Source: an uncultured delta proteobacterium (GTDB lineage: Bacteria > Desulfobacterota > Binatia > UBA9968). Taken from it: a stretch of 64,000 nt of DNA. The position numbers and the translations under genes were made by a program. The notes beneath the pieces were generated by a model that searched no databases, was not told the DNA's origin, and was given only the letters and a program-made list of their open reading frames with translations. The DNA is taken from assembly GCA_963728565.1 (NCBI GenBank), contig CAVSLC010000013.1, positions 192,001-256,000 on the forward strand, read 5' to 3'. Of the stretch, positions 6,298-16,257 are shown piece after piece (position 1 is the first letter of the stretch; each line of letters opens with the position of its first letter).

Positions 6298-7881
6298 TCA
6301 CCGATCATTAAGATCACTGGGTAAGATCATTTTGTGCGACAAAAACTCACTGACCACATCTTTCACCTGCCGCTGATCGCCATCGACAGCATAGTTGAGC
6401 TCACGCATCTCCTCGACGTTCAGAATTCCGCCCAGCTGTTTTAGGACTTCTCTTAGCTCAGGATGATTCTCCAAAGCCTTCTGCCGCACGACCGGTACCG
6501 CATCATAAGGAGGAAAGTAGTGCAGATCGTCCTCGAGTTGCACCAGGCCGTATCGGCTGATCAGGCCGTCGGTCGAATTCCCGGCAATCAGATCCACTTG
6601 CCTCTCCGATAGAGCGCGATAGGTCAAGGACAGGTCCATTTCACGAATTTCCTTGAATTGAAAACCATAGGTCCGCGCAAAGCCTGGATAACCGTCAGGC
6701 CGTGACATGAAATCCTGACCGAATCCGGCGCGCCATTGTGTTGACATTCGTGCCGCGTCAGTAATCGTCTTGAGATTATGGCGTCGTGCTTCATCGCCTC
6801 GAACCAGGATCGCAAAGGTATTGTTGAAGCCAAGCGGTTCGGTCCATTCGATGCCGAACTGTTCGGCGTAAGACGATTTGACCTGGCGATACACCTCTGC
6901 CGGATCCTTAATCGCCGGATTTTTTAAGATCGCCAGCAGAGCAGTACCGGTGTATTCGACATAAACATCAATCTCGCCGGCGATCATCGCCTGATGAGCC
7001 AGATTTCCGCCCAGATCGAATCGGCGCTCCACTTGGAGGCCGGTTTTGGCTTCAATCACCTGCGCCAGCAATTCACCCATAATGATCTGTTCGGTAAAAT
7101 CTTTTGAGCCAACAGCGATGCGGCTGGCACTGTAACCTCGCAGAAAACTGACAGTGCCAACCGCTATCAGGATGAGGGCTGTCGCCAGTGCCGGCCACAA
7201 AAGCTTGCGAATTTTGTGACTTGCCGCGCCGCGAAAACGGATTGCGCGCTCCAAAAATCCAAGAAACAGATCGGCAACGAGGGCAATCAAAGCAGCCGGA
7301 ACTGCTCCCGCCAGAATCAACACGTTGTCATTCGCTCTCAAGCCGCGGAAAATGTATCGTCCCAATCCGCCGGCATCGATGGCGGCGGCGATGGTTGCCG
7401 TGCCGACGCAGATCACGGTGGCGACGCGCACGCCGGCGATAATGACGCCGAGCGCTAGTGGCAATTCAACTTGAAGGAGCAGCTGCCGATCAGTCATGCC
7501 CATGCCGCGGCCGGCCTCCCGAATAGCCGGATCGACGCCGCTGATTCCGGTAAAAGTATTTCTAATGATCGGCAGCAGCGAGTATAAAACCAGTGCGGCA
7601 ATGGCGGTGCGGGCGCCGATACCACCGACGATACGCACATCAAAGAGAATCAGGTTGACCGGGATCAGAAAGCCAAAAAGCGCCAAGCTCGGCACGGTTT
7701 GCATGATGTTGGCAATGCCCAAGACGGGTTTGCTCAACGCCGGTTTACGCGTAAGGAGAATGCCGAGTGGCACACCGATCAGGAGCGCAATGCCGATTGA
7801 AACGCCGACTAGAAACAGATGCTCAAAGATCAGTGCAGCGAGTTCAGCCCGGTGCTCGAGGAAAAAGCGCAGCAAGCTCAT
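6298..7881 (-). CDS. quaternary-amine (betaine/osmoprotectant; EgtU/OpuBC-like architecture) ABC permease fused to substrate-binding domain
   Basis: QTVPSLAL, EAGRGMGM and GGLG permease motifs; C-terminal OpuAC-type SBP (GSKDFTEQ, YVEYTGT, RPDGY, FPPY); ATGA overlap with the ATPase stop. Confidence 0.9.
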   Translation of the reverse strand: MSLLRFFLEHRAELAALIFEHLFLVGVSIGIALLIGVPLGILLTRKPALSKPVLGIANIMQTVPSLALFGFLIPVNLILFDVRIVGGIGARTAIAALVLYSLLPIIRNTFTGISGVDPAIREAGRGMGMTDRQLLLQVELPLALGVIIAGVRVATVICVGTATIAAAIDAGGLGRYIFRGLRANDNVLILAGAVPAALIALVADLFLGFLERAIRFRGAASHKIRKLLWPALATALILIAVGTVSFLRGYSASRIAVGSKDFTEQIIMGELLAQVIEAKTGLQVERRFDLGGNLAHQAMIAGEIDVYVEYTGTALLAILKNPAIKDPAEVYRQVKSSYAEQFGIEWTEPLGFNNTFAILVRGDEARRHNLKTITDAARMSTQWRAGFGQDFMSRPDGYPGFARTYGFQFKEIREMDLSLTYRALSERQVDLIAGNSTDGLISRYGLVQLEDDLHYFPPYDAVPVVRQKALENHPELREVLKQLGGILNVEEMRELNYAVDGDQRQVKDVVSEFLSHKMILPSDLNDR

Positions 7882-8645
7882 GAACAGCTCTGCGCCTTTC
7901 CGGTATCGTGAAAACATTGGACGAAAGCCCGAGCCTCAGGATGATTCGAAGCAAGAAGCTCGGCAGGCGGTCCCAAAACGATCATCTCGCCATCCTTGAG
8001 TAAGCCGATGCGCGTTGCCAGGGCGAAAGCTTCGTCCACGTCATGAGTGACGAAAACCATGGTCTTGCCCAGGTGTTTTTGCAGTGAGCGAAACTCTTGT
8101 TGGATTTCGCGTCGCGTAATCGGGTCCAAAGCACCGAAGGGCTCATCTAGAAGGATCATCGGCGGATCTGCCGCCAACGCACGCGCCACCCCGACCCTTT
8201 GGCGCTGTCCACCGGAAAGTTCCGCCGGATAACGGGCGGCGAATCTGTCAGGCTCCAAACTCACCATCGCTAGCAGTTCCCGAGCGCGGTTTCTGATTTT
8301 ATCGGCCGGCCAACTTTCAAGCCTGGGTACGAGCCCGATATTCTCTTCAATGGTTAGATGAGGAAATAAGCCAATCTCCTGAATAACGTACCCGATCCGT
8401 CGCCGGAGAATTATGGGATCCCAGGCTCCTGTTGAGATTCCCTCGACCCGCACTTCGCCGGAAGTCGGCTCAAGTAGACGGTTAATCATCTTCATGGTGG
8501 TTGTTTTACCCGAGCCGCTACGGCCGAGAAGCACCACTGTTTCCCCCCGGCCTATCGTAAGGTTGAGATCAACGAGAAGTTTTTTCCCTTCACCGATCTC
8601 AAAGCTGACGTTGTCGAATTCGATAGCTACTCGATTGTCGATCAT
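7878..8645 (-). CDS. ABC ATP-binding protein, OpuA/ProV/EgtUA-like
   Basis: GRSGSGKTT Walker A, IGYVIQEIGLFPH, LSGGQRQRVGVARALAADP, DEPFGALDPITR; start taken at ATG 8645. Confidence 0.92.
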   Translation of the reverse strand: MIDNRVAIEFDNVSFEIGEGKKLLVDLNLTIGRGETVVLLGRSGSGKTTTMKMINRLLEPTSGEVRVEGISTGAWDPIILRRRIGYVIQEIGLFPHLTIEENIGLVPRLESWPADKIRNRARELLAMVSLEPDRFAARYPAELSGGQRQRVGVARALAADPPMILLDEPFGALDPITRREIQQEFRSLQKHLGKTMVFVTHDVDEAFALATRIGLLKDGEMIVLGPPAELLASNHPEARAFVQCFHDTGKAQSCS

Positions 8646-8702
8646 CGATCCATCGTCTCCCCCGGTCGCATCCGATTCCACTTTCTTATATTCTATTTCG
8701 AT

Positions 8703-9731
8703 ATGGAAACAGAGCCGCTGCCTTCGATCCTTGCGCCGCATCAGAAGGCGCGATGGAAAACCAATCAGGACGGTATCTGGACCTTGGACGGCTCCCGCGT
8801 AGATGAGGTCCCAGCCCGTTCGATTTTGACAACCTTATGGGATCAGCCCCGCTGGTTGGAGGCCTATCACTTATACGATCAACGAGGCTCCGATCTTTTC
8901 GAGCAGATTTGTCAGCTGCCGGAGTATTATCTGACTCGTACAGAAAATAGCATTCTCGAAGCGCAAGCCGCCGCAATCATCGCCGCCGCGCCGGTAGAAT
9001 GCATCGTCGAACTAGGCGCAGGCTATAGCAAGAAGACGATTCATTTGCTTACGGAACAGCTGCGGCAGCGCGACAAAGGGATCTTCGCGCCCATCGATGT
9101 GAGCGAATCAGGGCTACTGGCCTCGCGAGAAGCGGTCGCCCGAGATTTCCCGCGATTAGAGTTTCACGGACTTCACGCTCGCTATGAGGACGGCTTTACC
9201 AGTATCGAGCAAGCCGTGCCGACCCTGTTTGTGTTTCTCGGCAGCACTGTCGGCAACTTCAATCACTCTGACTTTCCACGTTTCTTTCGCGCGTTATCGG
9301 AAGCGATGGGACCGAAGGATTATCTCCTGCTCGGCGCCGATCGTATTAAGGACACAACGCTTCTCGAGCAGGCTTACAACGATTCACAGGGGCTGACCGC
9401 GCAGTTCATTCTGAACGTGTTTTGTCATATCAACGATCTGCTCGGGAGCAATTTTGACCTGGCAAAAATGCGCTATCACGCGCGCTTCAATTCGGAATGG
9501 CAGCAAATCGAAATGTACGCCATAGCGGAGCAACGTCATCGAGTAAGCTTCCCTACAGTAGAAACATCTTTCGAGTGGCAGAAAGACGAAAAAATTCTGG
9601 TGGAGATCAGCCGTAAGTTCGACCCTCAGCGGTTACAGGAACAGCTAAGGTTTTTCGATCTCCTACCGATCGAGCACTTCACCGATCCTAATCAATGGTT
9701 TTCCGTTCTGCTCTTCCGCAAGCAAGGCTGA
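8703..9731 (+). CDS. egtD: L-histidine N-alpha-methyltransferase (Methyltransf_33, hercynine synthase)
   Basis: YDxRGSDLFEQI, LPEYYLTRTE, VELGAG, FLGSTVGN, AYNDSQGLTAQF, IEMY and EISRKF are EgtD hallmarks. Confidence 0.88.
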   Translation: METEPLPSILAPHQKARWKTNQDGIWTLDGSRVDEVPARSILTTLWDQPRWLEAYHLYDQRGSDLFEQICQLPEYYLTRTENSILEAQAAAIIAAAPVECIVELGAGYSKKTIHLLTEQLRQRDKGIFAPIDVSESGLLASREAVARDFPRLEFHGLHARYEDGFTSIEQAVPTLFVFLGSTVGNFNHSDFPRFFRALSEAMGPKDYLLLGADRIKDTTLLEQAYNDSQGLTAQFILNVFCHINDLLGSNFDLAKMRYHARFNSEWQQIEMYAIAEQRHRVSFPTVETSFEWQKDEKILVEISRKFDPQRLQEQLRFFDLLPIEHFTDPNQWFSVLLFRKQG

Positions 9732-9805
9732 ATCTTAGACAACTCCGAAAGCTGCCCGGATAGTATCCCGCTGCCGCACATGCGTTAAGTGGGCACCCTG
9801 CTCGG

Positions 9806-10451
9806 TCAAGGCATTCCCAATAACGATCCCAGTGGTGAAATACTCAGCAACAGAACACTGCCGAAAACGGCAATGCCGCCGCCTGAGATGCGATGGATCC
9901 ACCATAAAAGACGCAAATTAAATCTGTCGCGAAACACCGTTAGGCCGAGAAACAATGCCACCCACCACGATGCCGAACCTACAAAGACCCCGGCGGCGAA
10001 TAGCGCCGCGCCGCCATACTGGCCAATCATGCTCTGGGCATTCCAGGCGGCATAAATCGCAGCGAAAGACAGTATGGTCAAGGGATTGGACAAGGTCAGA
10101 AGAAGGGTTGCCACGTATGTTCGCAGAAGCCCATTGATTCTCTTCGTTCGCGGCGGCGGTTGTCCGGGACGCGTGCAGATAGATTTCGTAACCGAGATAA
10201 CAAAGAAAAAGCCCGCCGACGAGTCGGAAAGCAAACTGGTGATCAACTAAGAACTGCGATACCAGCGAAATGCTCAGGGCCGCGATGCCTCCGGCCAAAG
10301 CATCAGCCGTGGCGATACCCAGGCCGGAAAAAAGGCCATACCATGGGCCCAGAGACAGCGCTCGATTGATGCACAACAGTCCGAGTGGGCCAACCGGTAC
10401 TGCCACGACAAATCCCATCATGGCGCCTTTGATGAGAAGATGAATTGCCAT
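9806..10451 (-). CDS. LysE-family translocator; frameshift near 10180
   Basis: N-half AVPVGPLGLLCINRAL...GLGIATADA in one frame and C-half LLTLSNPLTILSF...GVFVGSASWW in another. Confidence 0.82.
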
Positions 10452-10467
10452 TCCTGCCGTCGGAACT

Positions 10468-11289
10468 TTATTTTCTTGAGCGCGCGCAGCGAAAGCCGAT
10501 ATTGTGATGACCCGAACGGAAATTCCGAGAGACATGAGCGCCTCGATGGGTCGTCGTCAACTCTTCGGCCGCCGAATCCTGACCGCCTCCTCTGGTGACC
10601 CGTACGAGGTCCCGCTGCAACTCTTCACGGCCGTCAGCGGCATTATAGGGATAAGGAAGATACGCGCTGCTCACCCATTCCCAGCCGTTGCCGGCGAGAT
10701 CGAGCACGCCATAGGGGCTTGCTCCTTTCGGCAAGCTCCCCACCGGACGGAAGTCATTCCATCCTGCGCTGAAATGCGCCCGGGTGCGATCGGGCGGATC
10801 ATTGCCCCAGGGAAATTTTCGCCCGTCTGTGCCGCGCGCCGATTTCTCCCATTCCGCTTCGGTCGGCAATCGCTTACCTGACCAATCGCAGTACGCTGCC
10901 GCGCCGAACCACGAGGCCTCGATTACCGGGTGGTTCTCAAAGCCGGGATCAGACTGCCATTTACCGGCGCGAAGGTGAATGCGCGCGTCGTTATCAGCGT
11001 TATCGTACCACCGTTCGGCAGCTGCACCTCGAACGCCTTTGGCCTCGAGGAACCGGGCAAACTGCGAGTTCGTCACCGGTAAACGATCGATGAAAAATTC
11101 CGGCAAATCAATCCGGTGCTGTGGCCGCTCGTCGGCGGGCCCGTCGTCTCTGCCCATTGAAAATGGCCCGGCAGGGATTCTTCTCATGTCAGCGCCATCG
11201 TTTGCATCGGCGCCGGTCGTTTGCGCGATACATGCGGTCATTAATACGACCGAAAGTAAACCCCTCCGCCCAAGAAGAAAACGGCTCAT
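10468..11289 (-). CDS. exported stand-alone FGE-sulfatase (SUMF1/EgtB C-terminal-like) domain protein
   Basis: PAGPFSMG, PVTN, RLPTEAEWEKSARG, DLAGNGWEW, IGFRCA; N-terminal RRGLL plus hydrophobic signal; lacks the FGE catalytic cysteines after RGG and has no DinB domain. Confidence 0.85.
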   Translation of the reverse strand: MSRFLLGRRGLLSVVLMTACIAQTTGADANDGADMRRIPAGPFSMGRDDGPADERPQHRIDLPEFFIDRLPVTNSQFARFLEAKGVRGAAAERWYDNADNDARIHLRAGKWQSDPGFENHPVIEASWFGAAAYCDWSGKRLPTEAEWEKSARGTDGRKFPWGNDPPDRTRAHFSAGWNDFRPVGSLPKGASPYGVLDLAGNGWEWVSSAYLPYPYNAADGREELQRDLVRVTRGGGQDSAAEELTTTHRGAHVSRNFRSGHHNIGFRCARSRK

Positions 11290-11384
11290 GATCGCAACAT
11301 ACCGCTTTTGGAAATTCTAGGAAACACCGCGAATAGGACGAGCTAAACTTGTCACAGGTTTAAGCCTGTGCGAAAGTCCCAGCA

Positions 11385-12530
11385 ATGCGCAACTCGCAAT
11401 CGTTTCGCCGCCGCGGTGTTGTCGAAGGATTCTTTGGTCCGGTGTGGAGCATGGCCCATCGCCGCCGCCTATTCGAGTTCGGCGCCGCTCGGGGAATGAA
11501 CACCTACCTCTATGCGCCAAAGGACGATCCCTTCCATCGCGAACGCTGGATGGAACCTTATCCTGAGAAGGAATGGCAGGCGCTCTTGACTATCATTCGC
11601 GAAGCACGAAAGCGCCACATCGATTTTGTTTACGGCTTTCATCCCGGCAAGGCACTTTTGTTTAGCGCCGAGCAACCGCTGCGCATTCTGCTGTCGAAGG
11701 CGCAGCGTTTCTACGATGCGGGAGTGCGTACCTTCGCAGTGCTGTTCGACGATATCCCTTCTCGTCTGGAGCATGCCGCCGATCGCAAGCATTTCAACAA
11801 CAGCTTGGCACGAGCCGAAGGAAATTGGCTGGCAGAAATTATCGCTCTTCAGCCGCCTGCATGGTCCGATGTGGAGTGGTGGATCTGCCCTTCGTTTTAT
11901 ACCCGCGATCCATTACTGGCGCGCGTGTTTGGCGCCTTTGAGCCGCATTTTTTGGAAAATCTAGCGAAGTACCTTCCGCCCAATGTCTCCTGCTGCTGGA
12001 CCGGCCCTTTGGTGGTATCGACAAAGATAACCCTCGCGCACGTTAGAAAAATTGCCAAGCTCGTCGGCCGGCCGTTGATTCTCTGGGACAACTATCCGGT
12101 GAACGATCTTTCAATGAAGGACGAGCTTCACCTGGGTCCGTTGAAAAATCGTGACACGCATCTGCCGGAAATCGTTTACGGCTACCTCAACAATCCGTTA
12201 GTTCAAGAAGAACTGAGCTTTATCCCTTTGGCCACCTGTTTTGATTATGCCTTAAACCCTATGGCCTATAGAGCGGAAGAAAGTTGGAACGCGTTCGTTA
12301 AACGCTCTTTCGGTCAGCGCGAGAGCGCGCACTGGCGCGCCATTCGGAGCTTCTGCGAAAGAGTTCAGCGAACTAAACGATCAAAAGTTGCCTTGCGCAT
12401 CCCGCGCAGAGAACTGGAGGCGTTGCAAGACGCATCAGAATATATAAAGGCACATCGTCAAGAAAAATGGGCCGTGGAAATCAAGCCATGGCAGGAACAG
12501 ATCGAACAAGCGCTTAAAGCGCAGCAGTAG
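11385..12530 (+). CDS. GH84 beta-N-acetylglucosaminidase (O-GlcNAcase/NagJ-like catalytic domain), cytoplasmic
   Basis: RGVVEGFFG, YLYAPKDDPFHR, catalytic Asp-Asp in FAVLFDDIP, WTGP, LILWDNYPVND; no signal peptide or accessory domains. Confidence 0.9.
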   Translation: MRNSQSFRRRGVVEGFFGPVWSMAHRRRLFEFGAARGMNTYLYAPKDDPFHRERWMEPYPEKEWQALLTIIREARKRHIDFVYGFHPGKALLFSAEQPLRILLSKAQRFYDAGVRTFAVLFDDIPSRLEHAADRKHFNNSLARAEGNWLAEIIALQPPAWSDVEWWICPSFYTRDPLLARVFGAFEPHFLENLAKYLPPNVSCCWTGPLVVSTKITLAHVRKIAKLVGRPLILWDNYPVNDLSMKDELHLGPLKNRDTHLPEIVYGYLNNPLVQEELSFIPLATCFDYALNPMAYRAEESWNAFVKRSFGQRESAHWRAIRSFCERVQRTKRSKVALRIPRRELEALQDASEYIKAHRQEKWAVEIKPWQEQIEQALKAQQ

Positions 12531-12646
12531 ATCGTTATAACTACAGTTCGTCCAAATCTTGATCGCGCGCCGAGACTAGCGTAAATTTTTCAGAATGATT
12601 GATCCCCACAGTTACGCCGAGTTTGCGCGGCAGGCCACTTCCGGCA

Positions 12647-14029
12647 ATGAAAGGCGCTGAGCTGATTTCGCTGATGCGAGAGTATCGTTCCCGTACCCGA
12701 GAGTTGGTTGCAGATCTTGATGAGCGGCAACTGATCGGACCGCGTTTAGCAACGGTGAACCCGCCGTTATGGGAGATCGGACACGTCGGCTGGTTTCAGG
12801 AGTTTTGGCTCTTGCGCCACCTGCGCCGGCAGAAGCCACTGCTTGAGAACGGTGATCAACTCTATAATTCAACGGATGTAGCTCATGATGTTCGCTGGGA
12901 CCTTCTACTGCCTTCGCGCAATAACACATGGCGCTATCTGGACGAAGTCTTGAATCGAGTCATCGAACCGATCGAAGGTAAGCATGATTTATCCAAGGAG
13001 GAGCTCTACTTTTACTCTCTGACCACGTTTCATGAAGCCATGCACGCCGAAGCACTGGCGTGCACAAGGCAAACCCACGGTTATCCCAAGCCGAGCTTCC
13101 TGCCCGCCCACCGTATAGACCAAAATCGATCTGATGATCTTTGCCCAGGAGATGCAGAAATTCCGGGCGGCACATTCTTGATCGGTGCGACGCCTGACGC
13201 ACCGTTCGTTTTCGACAACGAAAAATGGGCTCATGAGGTAGTTCTTCGGCCCTTCCGGATCTCGCGCGCGCCGGTGAGCAATAGAGAATTTCGAGAATTC
13301 GTCGAGGACGGGGGTTATTGCCAGCCAAACTGGTGGAGCGAAGAAGGCTGGCGCTGGCTGGCGACCGGCGGCGCCCCGCAGCTCGAGCATTCGTTCGCAA
13401 AATTCTTCAACAAGCCGATCAAGCAGTCGAGTCAAGCGCATGCCGCTAAAGAGAAACTTGAGCATCCCATGTACTGGCGCCGTGACCCTGATGGCCACTG
13501 GCAACAGCGGGTTTTTGATCGCTACGTTCCGCTGCATGACAATCTGCCGGTTGTGCATGTCAGTTGGTACGAAGCGGAAGCGTTTTGCGCTTGGGCCGGA
13601 CGGCGTTTACCGAGCGAAGCGGAATGGGAAACTGCCGCATCGGCAGAACCAGCTCCCGACGGTTGCAGCTTGAGCAACAAACGGCGTCATTTCCCCTGGG
13701 GAGATACGCTACCGACTAGTGTCGAGGCAAACCTTGACTGGCAGAACGGAATCGTTGAAATCAGCGCCCATGGAGCAGGCGACAGCGCGTTTGGTTGTCG
13801 TCAGATGATCGGCAATGTCTGGGAGTGGACCGCTGACAACTTCATGCCTTATCCAGGATTTATCGCGGATCCTTATAAGGAATACTCGAAGCCGTGGTTC
13901 GGCACCCATAAGGTCCTGCGCGGCGGCTGCTGGGCGACCTCTTCGCGGCTCATTCGCAACACCTGGAGAAACTTCTACACGCCGGATCGTCGCGATGTTT
14001 TCTCCGGCTTTCGAACATGCGCAAAGTGA
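12647..14029 (+). CDS. senA: selenoneine synthase SenA (EgtB-family non-heme iron enzyme)
   Basis: DinB plus FGE domains; iron ligands in WEIGH and FHEAMH; SenA-type VNPPLWEIGHVGWFQEFWLLRH, YNSTDVAHDVRW, DPYKEYSKPWFG and RNFYTPDR; directly upstream of senB. Start could be 12599 or 12647. Confidence 0.85.
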   Translation: MKGAELISLMREYRSRTRELVADLDERQLIGPRLATVNPPLWEIGHVGWFQEFWLLRHLRRQKPLLENGDQLYNSTDVAHDVRWDLLLPSRNNTWRYLDEVLNRVIEPIEGKHDLSKEELYFYSLTTFHEAMHAEALACTRQTHGYPKPSFLPAHRIDQNRSDDLCPGDAEIPGGTFLIGATPDAPFVFDNEKWAHEVVLRPFRISRAPVSNREFREFVEDGGYCQPNWWSEEGWRWLATGGAPQLEHSFAKFFNKPIKQSSQAHAAKEKLEHPMYWRRDPDGHWQQRVFDRYVPLHDNLPVVHVSWYEAEAFCAWAGRRLPSEAEWETAASAEPAPDGCSLSNKRRHFPWGDTLPTSVEANLDWQNGIVEISAHGAGDSAFGCRQMIGNVWEWTADNFMPYPGFIADPYKEYSKPWFGTHKVLRGGCWATSSRLIRNTWRNFYTPDRRDVFSGFRTCAK

Positions 14030-14038
14030 TGCTCCAAC

Positions 14039-14995
14039 GTGAAAATCCAGCTCGTCACTCCGGCGCCGTTGCGCTTTAACAACGGCAACAAGATTACCGC
14101 CCTGCGGTGGGCGAAAATCCTTAGAACCCTTGGACACCGCGTAACGGTTTTGCAGCATTATGACGATAAGCCCTGCGATGCGCTGATTGCACTTCATGCG
14201 AGACGGAGCTATCGGTCGATCCGCCGTTTTCGCAAACTTCATCCCGAATTACCCTTGATCGTCGTCCTAACCGGGACGGACCTCTATCGCGATATCCGCA
14301 GCCACCGCAGTGCTCAACGGTCGCTCACGCTGGCGACGCGGATTGTTGCGCTGCAGAAGATGGCGTTGTCGGAATTATCCGAATCCTTGCATTCAAAAAC
14401 TCGGGTGATCTATCAGTCCGCGGAGCGCTGTTTGAGCCGTAATTCAAAAAATCGAGGAGATGGATTCAAAGTCTCAGTTATCGGTCACCTGAGAAACGAG
14501 AAGGACCCGCTGCGAACCGCATTGGCGACCCGCCGTTTGCCGAAGCACTCGCGGATCGAGGTACAGCATATCGGCCGGGCGTTGGATAAAGACCTCGAGC
14601 GCCGGGCGCGAGCCGAAATGGCGAGAAACCCACGCTATCGGTGGATCGGAGAGTTGGCGCATAAAAGGACCCGGGAGATTCTAGCGCAAAGCGATGTAAC
14701 GGTTATCACCTCGCGCATGGAAGGAAGCTCGAATGTGTTATCCGAAGCGCTCGCCTGCGCCGTGCCGGTCATCGCTTCGAGAATACCCGGATTGATGGGA
14801 ACCCTAGGAAGCGATTACCCGGGCTACTTTGCCACGGGCGACACGGTTTCACTGAGGGAAATTCTATTCCGAGCCGAAAGCGATCGGGCCTTTTACCGCT
14901 CGTTGCAATCAATTTGCAAGAGCTTGTCGCCCCTGGTGGCGCCCAAGCGAGAAGTGGCTGCCTGGAAACAACTTCTACAAGAGCTGCAATCTTAA
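14039..14995 (+). CDS. senB: selenosugar synthase SenB (GT-B glycosyltransferase)
   Basis: VTPAP..GNKITALRW, IALHARRS, VVLTGTDLYRDI, GHLRNEKDP, SRMEGSSNV and YPGYF are characteristic of the SenB family. Confidence 0.9.
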   Translation: MKIQLVTPAPLRFNNGNKITALRWAKILRTLGHRVTVLQHYDDKPCDALIALHARRSYRSIRRFRKLHPELPLIVVLTGTDLYRDIRSHRSAQRSLTLATRIVALQKMALSELSESLHSKTRVIYQSAERCLSRNSKNRGDGFKVSVIGHLRNEKDPLRTALATRRLPKHSRIEVQHIGRALDKDLERRARAEMARNPRYRWIGELAHKRTREILAQSDVTVITSRMEGSSNVLSEALACAVPVIASRIPGLMGTLGSDYPGYFATGDTVSLREILFRAESDRAFYRSLQSICKSLSPLVAPKREVAAWKQLLQELQS

Positions 14996-14997
14996 AG

Positions 14998-16257
14998 CTA
15001 TCGAGATTGAGAAGGCTCCTCGCGTATCCAGGGTTTCACCCAGGGCAAGAGCAGATAAGCGGGCATCGACAACAAAAAAGTTAAGGCGAAATAGTTGCCA
15101 TAGCCATAATGCTCTGCGCCGAGCCCGCTAATGCCGCCGATCAAGCGTCCGGTCAGCGAGAAGATCGAAGAAAGAAAGGCATACTGCACGGTTGCATGCT
15201 CTTTTTGACAAATGTTCATGAGAAAGGCCAGGAATGCCGCCGTTCCCAGGCCGCCGCTAAACGACTCGAACATCGATGCGCTATAGAGGCCGTACCTTCC
15301 AAGACTTAACCATTCGACGGCCGAATAACCCAGATTGGAAAACGCCTGCAGTAAACCCAATAACCATACTGCATGGAAGATTCCGTAACGCGTGATAAAC
15401 GCGCCTCCGGCTAATGCTCCGGCTATGCTGAGAACGATGCCAAAGCTGGTGGGAAACAGTCCGATTTGAAACATGAGATCTTCCTGCAGCGGCCAAATCG
15501 ATTTACCGTAATCCACCCAGAACGGTTTGACCATCGGGCCGATGGCAAACTCGCCCAGCTTATACGTCAACACGAAAGCCACAAGAGGAATTACCCGCCA
15601 AGTCCCGGCCCATCCGATAAAGCCTTGCCACCAGTGCTGGCGCGCTTCCTCGGGCAGATGAAGCCGCGGAATTAGGAGCGCACACAATCCCAGAGCAATG
15701 AATAGCGCTCCCGCCAGGTTGAATAAAAGGCTCCAGCGCAGCGCTGCTGCGAGAAACACCAGCCCACCACCGACGAATACCAAAGCCACTCGGTAGGCGG
15801 AAGCGCGCACGCCATTGGCGGGCCCCTCCTCCTGCCGAGCAATCAGCCCGACTGAATAAGAATCAATGGCAACGTCTTGCGTCGCCGACAAGGTCGTAAA
15901 AGCGAGTACCAGAACGAGAACGAGCAAGCCGACACCGGCAACGTCTACCCACGGCAGCGCTAACAACACCGCTGCGATGCCGAGCATACAACCCAGTACC
16001 CACATGCGGCGATCGCCGTGTCGATGCACCAGCGGCGACCAGATTACTTTTAAAGAATACGGCAGTTCCAGCAGCCGCAAGCCGCCGATGGCGCGCAGCG
16101 AAACGCCGTGCAGCCGAAAGTAAACCGGCAGCACTTCCCAGAGAATAGCCGCGGGCGCGCCCTGAATGAAGTAGAGCAGCGCGACCACACCCAGCTTGTT
16201 CTTGGTTTCTGGCGCCGCCCGACTTACGCCGAGGCATTTCCACATCAGTTCCCGCAT
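14998..16257 (-). CDS. AmpG-like MFS permease
   Basis: LYFIQG, LPYSLKVIWSPLV, SATQDVAIDSY and ATVQYAFLSS match the AmpG/peptide-acetyl-CoA transporter family; convergent on senB with a 2-bp gap. Confidence 0.8.
   Translation of the reverse strand: MRELMWKCLGVSRAAPETKNKLGVVALLYFIQGAPAAILWEVLPVYFRLHGVSLRAIGGLRLLELPYSLKVIWSPLVHRHGDRRMWVLGCMLGIAAVLLALPWVDVAGVGLLVLVLVLAFTTLSATQDVAIDSYSVGLIARQEEGPANGVRASAYRVALVFVGGGLVFLAAALRWSLLFNLAGALFIALGLCALLIPRLHLPEEARQHWWQGFIGWAGTWRVIPLVAFVLTYKLGEFAIGPMVKPFWVDYGKSIWPLQEDLMFQIGLFPTSFGIVLSIAGALAGGAFITRYGIFHAVWLLGLLQAFSNLGYSAVEWLSLGRYGLYSASMFESFSGGLGTAAFLAFLMNICQKEHATVQYAFLSSIFSLTGRLIGGISGLGAEHYGYGNYFALTFLLSMPAYLLLPWVKPWIREEPSQSR

Follow-up and report, generated by a model that had tools for sequence, protein, structure and literature searches.

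A GH84 glycosidase gene conserved beside senAB in one bacterial order: a putative accessory Se-glycosidase of selenoneine biosynthesis

Why would a gene for a β-N-acetylglucosaminidase lie directly upstream of the genes for selenoneine biosynthesis? The selenoneine route was described in 2022 as a three-enzyme pathway and, in the available text of that account, no enzyme assists the departure of the sugar (Kayrouz et al., bioRxiv 10.1101/2022.04.13.486033). We encountered the arrangement in an uncultured delta proteobacterium (GTDB lineage Bacteria; Desulfobacterota; Binatia; UBA9968), in a 64,000-nucleotide stretch (hereafter the window) covering positions 192,001 to 256,000 of contig CAVSLC010000013.1, assembly GCA_963728565.1. 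There, a glycosidase gene of family GH84 precedes senA and senB. We found that this linkage is conserved across one order of the class. Tentatively, and at somewhat less than an even chance, we propose that the GH84 protein is an accessory Se-glycosidase of the selenoneine pathway that acts on the selenoether of hercynine and selenium-linked N-acetylglucosamine (hercynyl-SeGlcNAc); we infer both the substrate and the physiological role. The features at the center of this proposal are as follows.

11385–12530, plus strand: GH84 β-N-acetylglucosaminidase, 381 amino acids, predicted cytoplasmic, a (β/α)8 barrel with a short C-terminal helical bundle
12531–12646, plus strand: intergenic gap between the GH84 gene and senA, 116 bp to the ATG at 12647 or 68 bp to the TTG at 12599
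12647–14029, plus strand: senA, selenoneine synthase (a non-heme iron selenoxide synthase, NHISS), probably hercynine-accepting, NF041186
14039–14995, plus strand: senB, selenosugar (SeGlcNAc) synthase, TIGR04348

The first of these genes encodes a compact GH84 enzyme. Its product matched PF07555 (NAGidase) at 271.2 bits (cut-off 25), with residues 10–316 covering profile positions 1–289 of 295. GH84 enzymes are specific for β-linked N-acetylglucosamine (GlcNAc) and use the substrate's 2-acetamido group as the nucleophile (substrate-assisted catalysis). The catalytic pair, D122/D123, falls in the motif AVLFDDIP and aligns with the DD of 5diy (DN in the D120N mutant) and with CpOGA. In an AlphaFold2 model (pLDDT 95.3, pTM 0.92), the first β-strand of the barrel starts at residue 9. 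This leaves no space for a signal peptide, so the enzyme is predicted to be cytoplasmic. Every top Foldseek match in the PDB, among the matches listed, was a GH84 chain, and the best solved match was the O-GlcNAc hydrolase from Thermobaculum terrenum (TtOGA, 5diy; TMq 0.87 by Foldseek, 230 bits by sequence). Against NF041654, a 732-position GlcNAcase equivalog, the protein scored 191.8 bits, below the cut-off of 1000, with the catalytic domain alone matching. These results bear out the original prediction of a minimal cytoplasmic GH84 with an intact Asp-Asp pair. We found no second GH84 gene in the source genome, a metagenome-assembled genome that is 80.6% complete in 28 contigs.

To examine the linkage, we used the GH84 protein and the SenB family as queries against 401 sampled genomes of the class and tallied the places of the matches. 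(G738, G728 and G780, which are in this tally, and the genome of locus L071, considered below, are flagged unpublished.) A close GH84 (52–100% identity) was present in 83 genomes, all from three families of one order: 54 of 64 genomes in f1, which includes the source genome, 26 of 27 in f112 and three of four in f113. These families contain 89 genomes with senB, and 81 genomes carry both genes. GH84 and senB share a contig in 72 of the 81; all 72 pairs are co-oriented with senB downstream, 143–4286 bp apart, and the median distance of about 1.6 kb is the length of senA. In the other nine, fragmented assemblies place the two genes on separate contigs, and in one of these the contig with senB carries a second GH84 fragment. 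Contig ends also account for both genomes with GH84 only, where they fall just after GH84 or inside senA (L036, L037). Among the eight genomes with senB only, the contig of six breaks off either within senA or upstream of it at a distance below 0.8 kb. The GH84-sen linkage is not due to chance. The original prediction had said that it would be undermined by close GH84 orthologs lying mostly in genomes without senAB. This outcome did not occur: 81 of the 83 genomes have senB, and the contigs of the other two end.

The pairing persists through rearrangement. Gene order flanking GH84, senA and senB differs between families, and the adjacency of GH84 and senB is retained. In three f113 genomes (G434, G606 and G500; loci L024–L026) and in G712 (L021), senA has moved elsewhere and GH84 sits 143–334 bp upstream of senB. 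A full-score SenA is encoded elsewhere in all four of these genomes; it lies about 1.4 Mb from the GH84-senB pair in G434, and G712 has two full SenA genes. Several f1 genera carry glyoxalase-fold and α/β-hydrolase genes, sometimes with a gene for an NMT1-type binding protein, co-oriented between GH84 and senA (L011 at 9671–12295, L019, L022, L016, L018, L040, L066 and L009), two or three genes in all that leave the array unbroken. GH84 orthologs are 55–60% identical across families, which implies that there was ample time for shuffling.

The linked GH84s, at least 55% identical to one another, are also isolated in sequence. Among 1.84 billion representatives clustered at 50% identity, the best full-length match to the window GH84 was 56% identical and the next full-length match no more than 41%; everything between these values was a fragment. 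In a locus scan limited to one genome per species, we recovered 80 loci: 18 close (55–74% identity) and 62 distant (at most 40% identity, from many phyla). Thirteen of the 18 close loci have senA and senB downstream, one has senA followed by the contig end and one ends at GH84. None of the 62 distant loci has senA or senB within 7 kb, and the nearest GH84s outside the clade (L045, L089 and L090) have uninformative neighbors: PEMT, oxidoreductases and domains of unknown function. In a FastTree phylogeny of 153 rows with Shimodaira-Hasegawa-like support, a single branch, supported at 100, has all 61 close GH84s on the same side. The sen-linked enzymes thus form a single clade, a point that the original prediction had left to be settled by phylogeny. 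Three clade members come from records titled Burkholderiales or Betaproteobacteria (L074, L076 and L082), and they nest among Binatia-labeled sequences in the tree. This nesting may stem from gene transfer or from problems in naming or binning.

We compared 25 clade members with 27 distant GH84s in an alignment of 52 sequences. Eight residues (K46, D122, D123, Y172, W234, N236, D241 and N270) are invariant in all 52. Apart from the catalytic pair, these are residues of the GlcNAc pocket (the −1 subsite) in GH84 structures. Because the eight are invariant across the clade and the distant enzymes, the pocket and catalytic machinery of the sen-linked GH84s are intact. The literature on O-GlcNAcase names D174 and N280 as contacts to GlcNAc. 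A further 46 positions are fixed within the clade and different in other GH84s, and several of these flank catalytic or pocket residues on the catalytic face of the barrel, as judged from strand and loop positions in the AlphaFold2 model. F17, for example, occupies the site of the Tyr in the GFYG motif found in 93% of other GH84s, and H86, S126, S170 and L272 are additional clade-specific residues beside catalytic or pocket residues. The clade also has a conserved nine-residue insertion (178–186) after the pocket residue Tyr172, and TtOGA lacks it. In human O-GlcNAcase (hOGA), the stretch near the Tyr equivalent to Y172 holds groove residues that are required for protein substrates and not for a small substrate. 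The clade-specific changes may therefore represent a remodeled aglycone site, which would fit an altered aglycone.

The spacing of GH84 and senA bears on whether they are expressed together. The two open reading frames (ORFs) lie where the original prediction had put them, co-oriented and some 70–120 bp apart (68 bp to the TTG or 116 bp to the ATG). A pattern scan found no terminator-like or promoter-like site between them. Rfam gave no match at the gathering score in the gaps; the one sub-threshold match, to IRES_Hsp70 (22.7 bits, where 80 are required), is a chance match. Across 47 related loci, the extrapolated gap does not exceed 150 bp in 25 and is about 10 bp in six of these; a few of the loci duplicate one another, the same genome having been reached along two routes. 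Gaps this short suggest a single GH84-senA transcript. Contigs from four soil metatranscriptome libraries (92–99% likeness) cover parts of GH84, senA and senB, and three of them bridge senA and senB, with DNA carry-over possible.

The genes downstream of GH84 were assigned as follows. The senA product scored 495.6 bits against the NCBIfam SenA family NF041186 (cut-off 420) and contains DinB_2 and FGE-sulfatase domains. Its ORF opens at the TTG at 12599, and the family match and relatives favor the ATG at 12647 as the start. The senB product scored 398.1 bits against TIGR04348 (cut-off 300) and 205 bits against the solved SenB chains 8fbx and 8jjn. A gene for hercynine supply lies in the same locus, and it is found upstream of GH84 in many f1 loci.

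8703–9731, plus strand: egtD, histidine N-α-trimethylase (hercynine supply), TIGR03438 at 297.1 bits (cut-off 290.9)

Judged by overall score, the senA product resembles the solved ovoselenol synthase OvsA (355 bits) more closely than SenA from Variovorax paradoxus (243 bits), which prompted us to consider whether the window NHISS is an OvsA. According to the part of the ovoselenol preprint available, specificity depends on three residues: M401/Q430/A431 in OvsA for histidine and Y/N/F in SenA for hercynine. When the window protein was aligned with OvsA, OvsA-YNF and V. paradoxus SenA, it showed the catalytic Tyr410 and Y413/N442/F443, and its score against the OvsA-YNF mutant exceeds that against wild-type OvsA. 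We rejected the OvsA identity because the motif is Y/N/F rather than M/Q/A and egtD is in the locus. Motif and egtD together support a hercynine-accepting SenA. The scores suggest that this SenA belongs to a lineage near the SenA/OvsA split.

What could a GH84 enzyme contribute to this pathway? Following the established steps, EgtD would make hercynine, and SenB would convert UDP-GlcNAc and selenophosphate, here presumably from a distant SelD, to 1-seleno-β-GlcNAc. SenA would then join hercynine and SeGlcNAc oxidatively to give the hercynyl-SeGlcNAc selenoxide. In vitro, the selenoxide can follow either of two courses, spontaneous elimination to selenoneine or reduction by thiols to a stable selenoether. 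In the available text of the 2022 study, the selenoxide product of SenA was undetected and the thiol-reduced hercynyl-SeGlcNAc selenoether was detected (10.1101/2022.04.13.486033). In the thiol-rich cytoplasm, much of the scarce selenium could become trapped as this dead-end selenoether. GH84 would hydrolyze its β-Se-GlcNAc bond: D122 would polarize the 2-acetamido group, an oxazoline intermediate would form and D123 would then serve as the base for water. This would release GlcNAc and selenoneine, the latter being an excellent leaving group. The enzyme may act on the selenoxide itself as well.

The chemistry is compatible with this scheme, since the products of SenB and SenA are β-linked GlcNAc selenides, as far as the consulted portions of the literature describe them, and thus have both the configuration and the 2-acetamido sugar that GH84 requires. 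Cleavage of the hercynyl-Se-GlcNAc adduct, as put forward in the original prediction, is plausible. Its second suggestion, recycling of free SeGlcNAc, is less likely: if a SeGlcNAc hydrolase were expressed alongside SenB, it would destroy what SenB makes. The broader idea that the clade comprises the first natural Se-glycosidases, finishing or rescuing selenoneine biosynthesis, is putative; we consider it a serious possibility that falls a little short of probable.

The sugar released in the pathway offers a different substrate, one that the original prediction had not taken into account. The sister OvsA reaction, stated to be analogous to that of SenA in the text available, releases the sugar as 2-acetamidoglucal. 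GH84 could act on this by-product, either hydrating it to GlcNAc for salvage or removing a hexosaminidase inhibitor, and the GH84-senB linkage data fit this explanation as well. N-acetyl glycals are listed as hexosaminidase inhibitors in the material consulted, and the source genome has a GH3 NagZ-like gene whose product is a possible target. One paper reportedly calls them tight-binding hexosaminidase inhibitors in its title. The compounds are thus described as inhibitors and not as substrates, however, and glycal hydration would be awkward for GH84, which, by its established mechanism, has neither an enzymic nucleophile nor an acid placed to protonate C2. Glycal salvage would save little carbon in a pathway whose flux is presumably limited by selenium, and other sen and ovs lineages manage without a GH84. 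We regard a role in glycal disposal as improbable.

A third candidate substrate is the selenosugar itself. By hydrolyzing SeGlcNAc, either free or as the diselenide, or a selenosugar brought in from outside, GH84 might release selenide and so serve selenium salvage or homeostasis, perhaps together with the permease encoded after senB in the window and in other f1 loci.

14998–16257, minus strand: AmpG-family major facilitator superfamily (MFS) permease, TIGR00901 at 238.8 bits (below the cut-off of 350), convergent with senB across a 2-bp gap

This gene is the sole AmpG-family match in the genome, and its product could possibly carry a GlcNAc-bearing compound. Selenide is a good leaving group, and GH84 stays beside senB where senA has moved away, as selenosugar turnover would predict. 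All four genomes with an unlinked senA nevertheless still encode a full SenA, and a selenosugar hydrolase co-expressed with senB would set up a futile cycle at the expense of ATP and UDP-GlcNAc. The AmpG-like gene runs convergent to senB, not in the same direction, and f112 and f113 loci, where the GH84-sen linkage persists, lack it. We therefore give selenosugar turnover very little credence.

GH84 could instead be an unrelated housekeeping β-GlcNAcase that acts on protein O-GlcNAc, muropeptides or another conjugate, with its proximity to senAB reflecting inherited synteny in one order. Its closest solved relative, TtOGA, is a genuine bacterial protein O-GlcNAc hydrolase. The window GH84 is also the sole GH84 of its genome, and the sole AmpG-family permease lies 2.5 kb away. 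For a housekeeping O-GlcNAcase, we would expect a partner transferase. A search for GT41 O-GlcNAc transferases (OGTs; PF13844) found none in the source genome (80.6% complete) or in five genomes of the order (97–99% complete), six of six in all, whereas the control genomes gave matches. For muropeptides, the separate GH3 NagZ-like gene exists. Synteny fits poorly with the retention of the GH84-senB pair while other neighbors change and orthologs diverge to 55–60% identity, with gaps that shrink to about 10 bp and with clade-specific changes beside catalytic residues. We judge the housekeeping explanation unlikely, although it deserves consideration, and two of the points in its favor also belong to the case against a selenoneine-pathway Se-glycosidase, which we set out next.

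Several observations weigh against the Se-glycosidase proposal. The linked genomes all come from a single order; the linkage therefore has one evolutionary origin and its instances are not independent replicates. Outside this order, none of nine sen loci from other families of the class had a GH84 nearby in the 9.5–20 kb fetched, a result that also speaks for the specificity of the linkage. Three of the 18 close GH84 loci (L071, L074 and L076) are unlinked, with no senAB within 6–7 kb, and their genomes still encode SenB elsewhere. G768 and G778, the two senB-only genomes not explained by contig ends, are possible exceptions: they lack a GH84 in the 2.1–2.3 kb present upstream of senA, and these incomplete assemblies yielded none elsewhere either. 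No metatranscriptome contig spans 12530–12647, in a survey of short Logan contigs from four soil runs where DNA carry-over is possible. From the chemical side, spontaneous elimination was argued to make an EgtE-like enzyme unnecessary, in the available text of the 2022 study (10.1101/2022.04.13.486033). Cys-S-GlcNAc peptides are not hydrolyzed by hOGA, and chalcogen glycosides are thus not automatic substrates. Finally, the available part of a 2026 tabulation of genes co-encoded with NHISS synthases lists no glycosidase.

The proposed Se-glycosidase gene sits within a wider locus that resembles a selenoneine island and includes the following additional genes.

6298–7917, minus strand: betaine-type ATP-binding cassette (ABC) importer, permease fused to an OpuAC-type binding protein (PF00528 and PF04069 on one protein)
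7878–8741, minus strand: ATPase of the betaine-type ABC importer (PF00005)
9918–10535, minus strand: LysE-type exporter ORF, Pfam match from residue 43
10468–11289, minus strand: stand-alone FGE-sulfatase-domain protein, 273 amino acids, with an N-terminal signal peptide/lipobox-like sequence and no DinB domain

The importer genes are divergent from egtD, and the importer-egtD block recurs upstream of GH84 in many f1 loci. We take the importer architecture (6298–8741) to resemble that of the ergothioneine importer EgtU/EgtV. The FGE-domain gene is divergent from GH84 and is kept, at 63–77% identity, in many f1 and f113 loci. We considered its product as a SenA substitute for loci without senA and rejected it, given its signal peptide, its lack of a DinB domain and the full SenA encoded elsewhere. 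As listed, the LysE-type and FGE-domain ORFs overlap by 68 bp. The true LysE start is probably further downstream, because the Pfam match begins at residue 43.

Selenium supply is encoded apart from the locus. The sen cluster contains neither senC nor selD, and the genome has a single strong selD match on another contig (C28:38569–39495) with one in-frame TGA; SelD probably contains selenocysteine. All five near-complete relatives likewise have a single selD with one in-frame TGA, well separated from the sen genes and, where the genome is complete, some 1 Mb from them. Because this single gene lies so far away, the cluster appears to depend on a housekeeping SelD rather than on senC. The genome also has a second full-length EgtB/SenA-like gene (C9:25792–27081), which scores 223 bits against the EgtB family, below the cut-off.

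The order-wide conservation of GH84 with senAB suggests an undescribed enzymatic sugar-removal step in the selenoneine pathway. A conserved, operon-embedded GlcNAc hydrolase points to a missing step, whether release, selenoether rescue or glycal clean-up. If the proposal is correct, a release step evolved in at least one bacterial order and yields more selenoneine per selenium atom, which would account for how cells keep scarce selenium out of a dead-end adduct. It would also define a new substrate class for the O-GlcNAcase family and provide a practical tool for higher selenoneine yield in engineered producers. We know of no natural Se-glycoside substrate for any GH84. Macauley, Stubbs and Vocadlo reportedly described in 2005 the cleavage of thioglycosides by human O-GlcNAcase, a precedent with a good leaving group and synthetic substrates. 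The literature we searched held no publication pairing selenoneine with GH84, and publications pairing selenoneine with acetylglucosaminidase or glycoside hydrolase were, by their titles, on other subjects.

We compared the locus with known systems. The window GH84 shares its fold, Pfam family, Asp-Asp pair and GlcNAc-pocket residues with TtOGA (5diy) and other GH84 O-GlcNAcases (CpOGA/NagJ, BtGH84 and human OGA). Like TtOGA it is compact and cytoplasmic, but it is shorter (381 versus 474 amino acids) and only 32–33% identical in structural alignment. It further differs from TtOGA in the Phe that replaces the GFYG Tyr, the nine-residue insertion after Tyr172 and its location in a selenoneine operon, with no OGT partner found. 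The senA-senB-senC cluster of V. paradoxus has senA and senB in common with the window, which lacks senC and has the extra upstream GH84. The published V. paradoxus pathway, in the available text, has no enzymatic step for C-Se cleavage or sugar removal (10.1101/2022.04.13.486033). An analogy can be drawn to EgtC and EgtE of ergothioneine biosynthesis, which, in the sources as available, liberate the thione by cutting back the donor moiety once EgtB-type C-S coupling has taken place. The resemblance is one of role only, as these enzymes (an amidohydrolase and a pyridoxal phosphate-dependent lyase) are unrelated to GH84 in fold and chemistry. We conclude that the window holds a known system in variant form, and the chance that its putative Se-glycosidase conceals a new enzyme activity is a real one.

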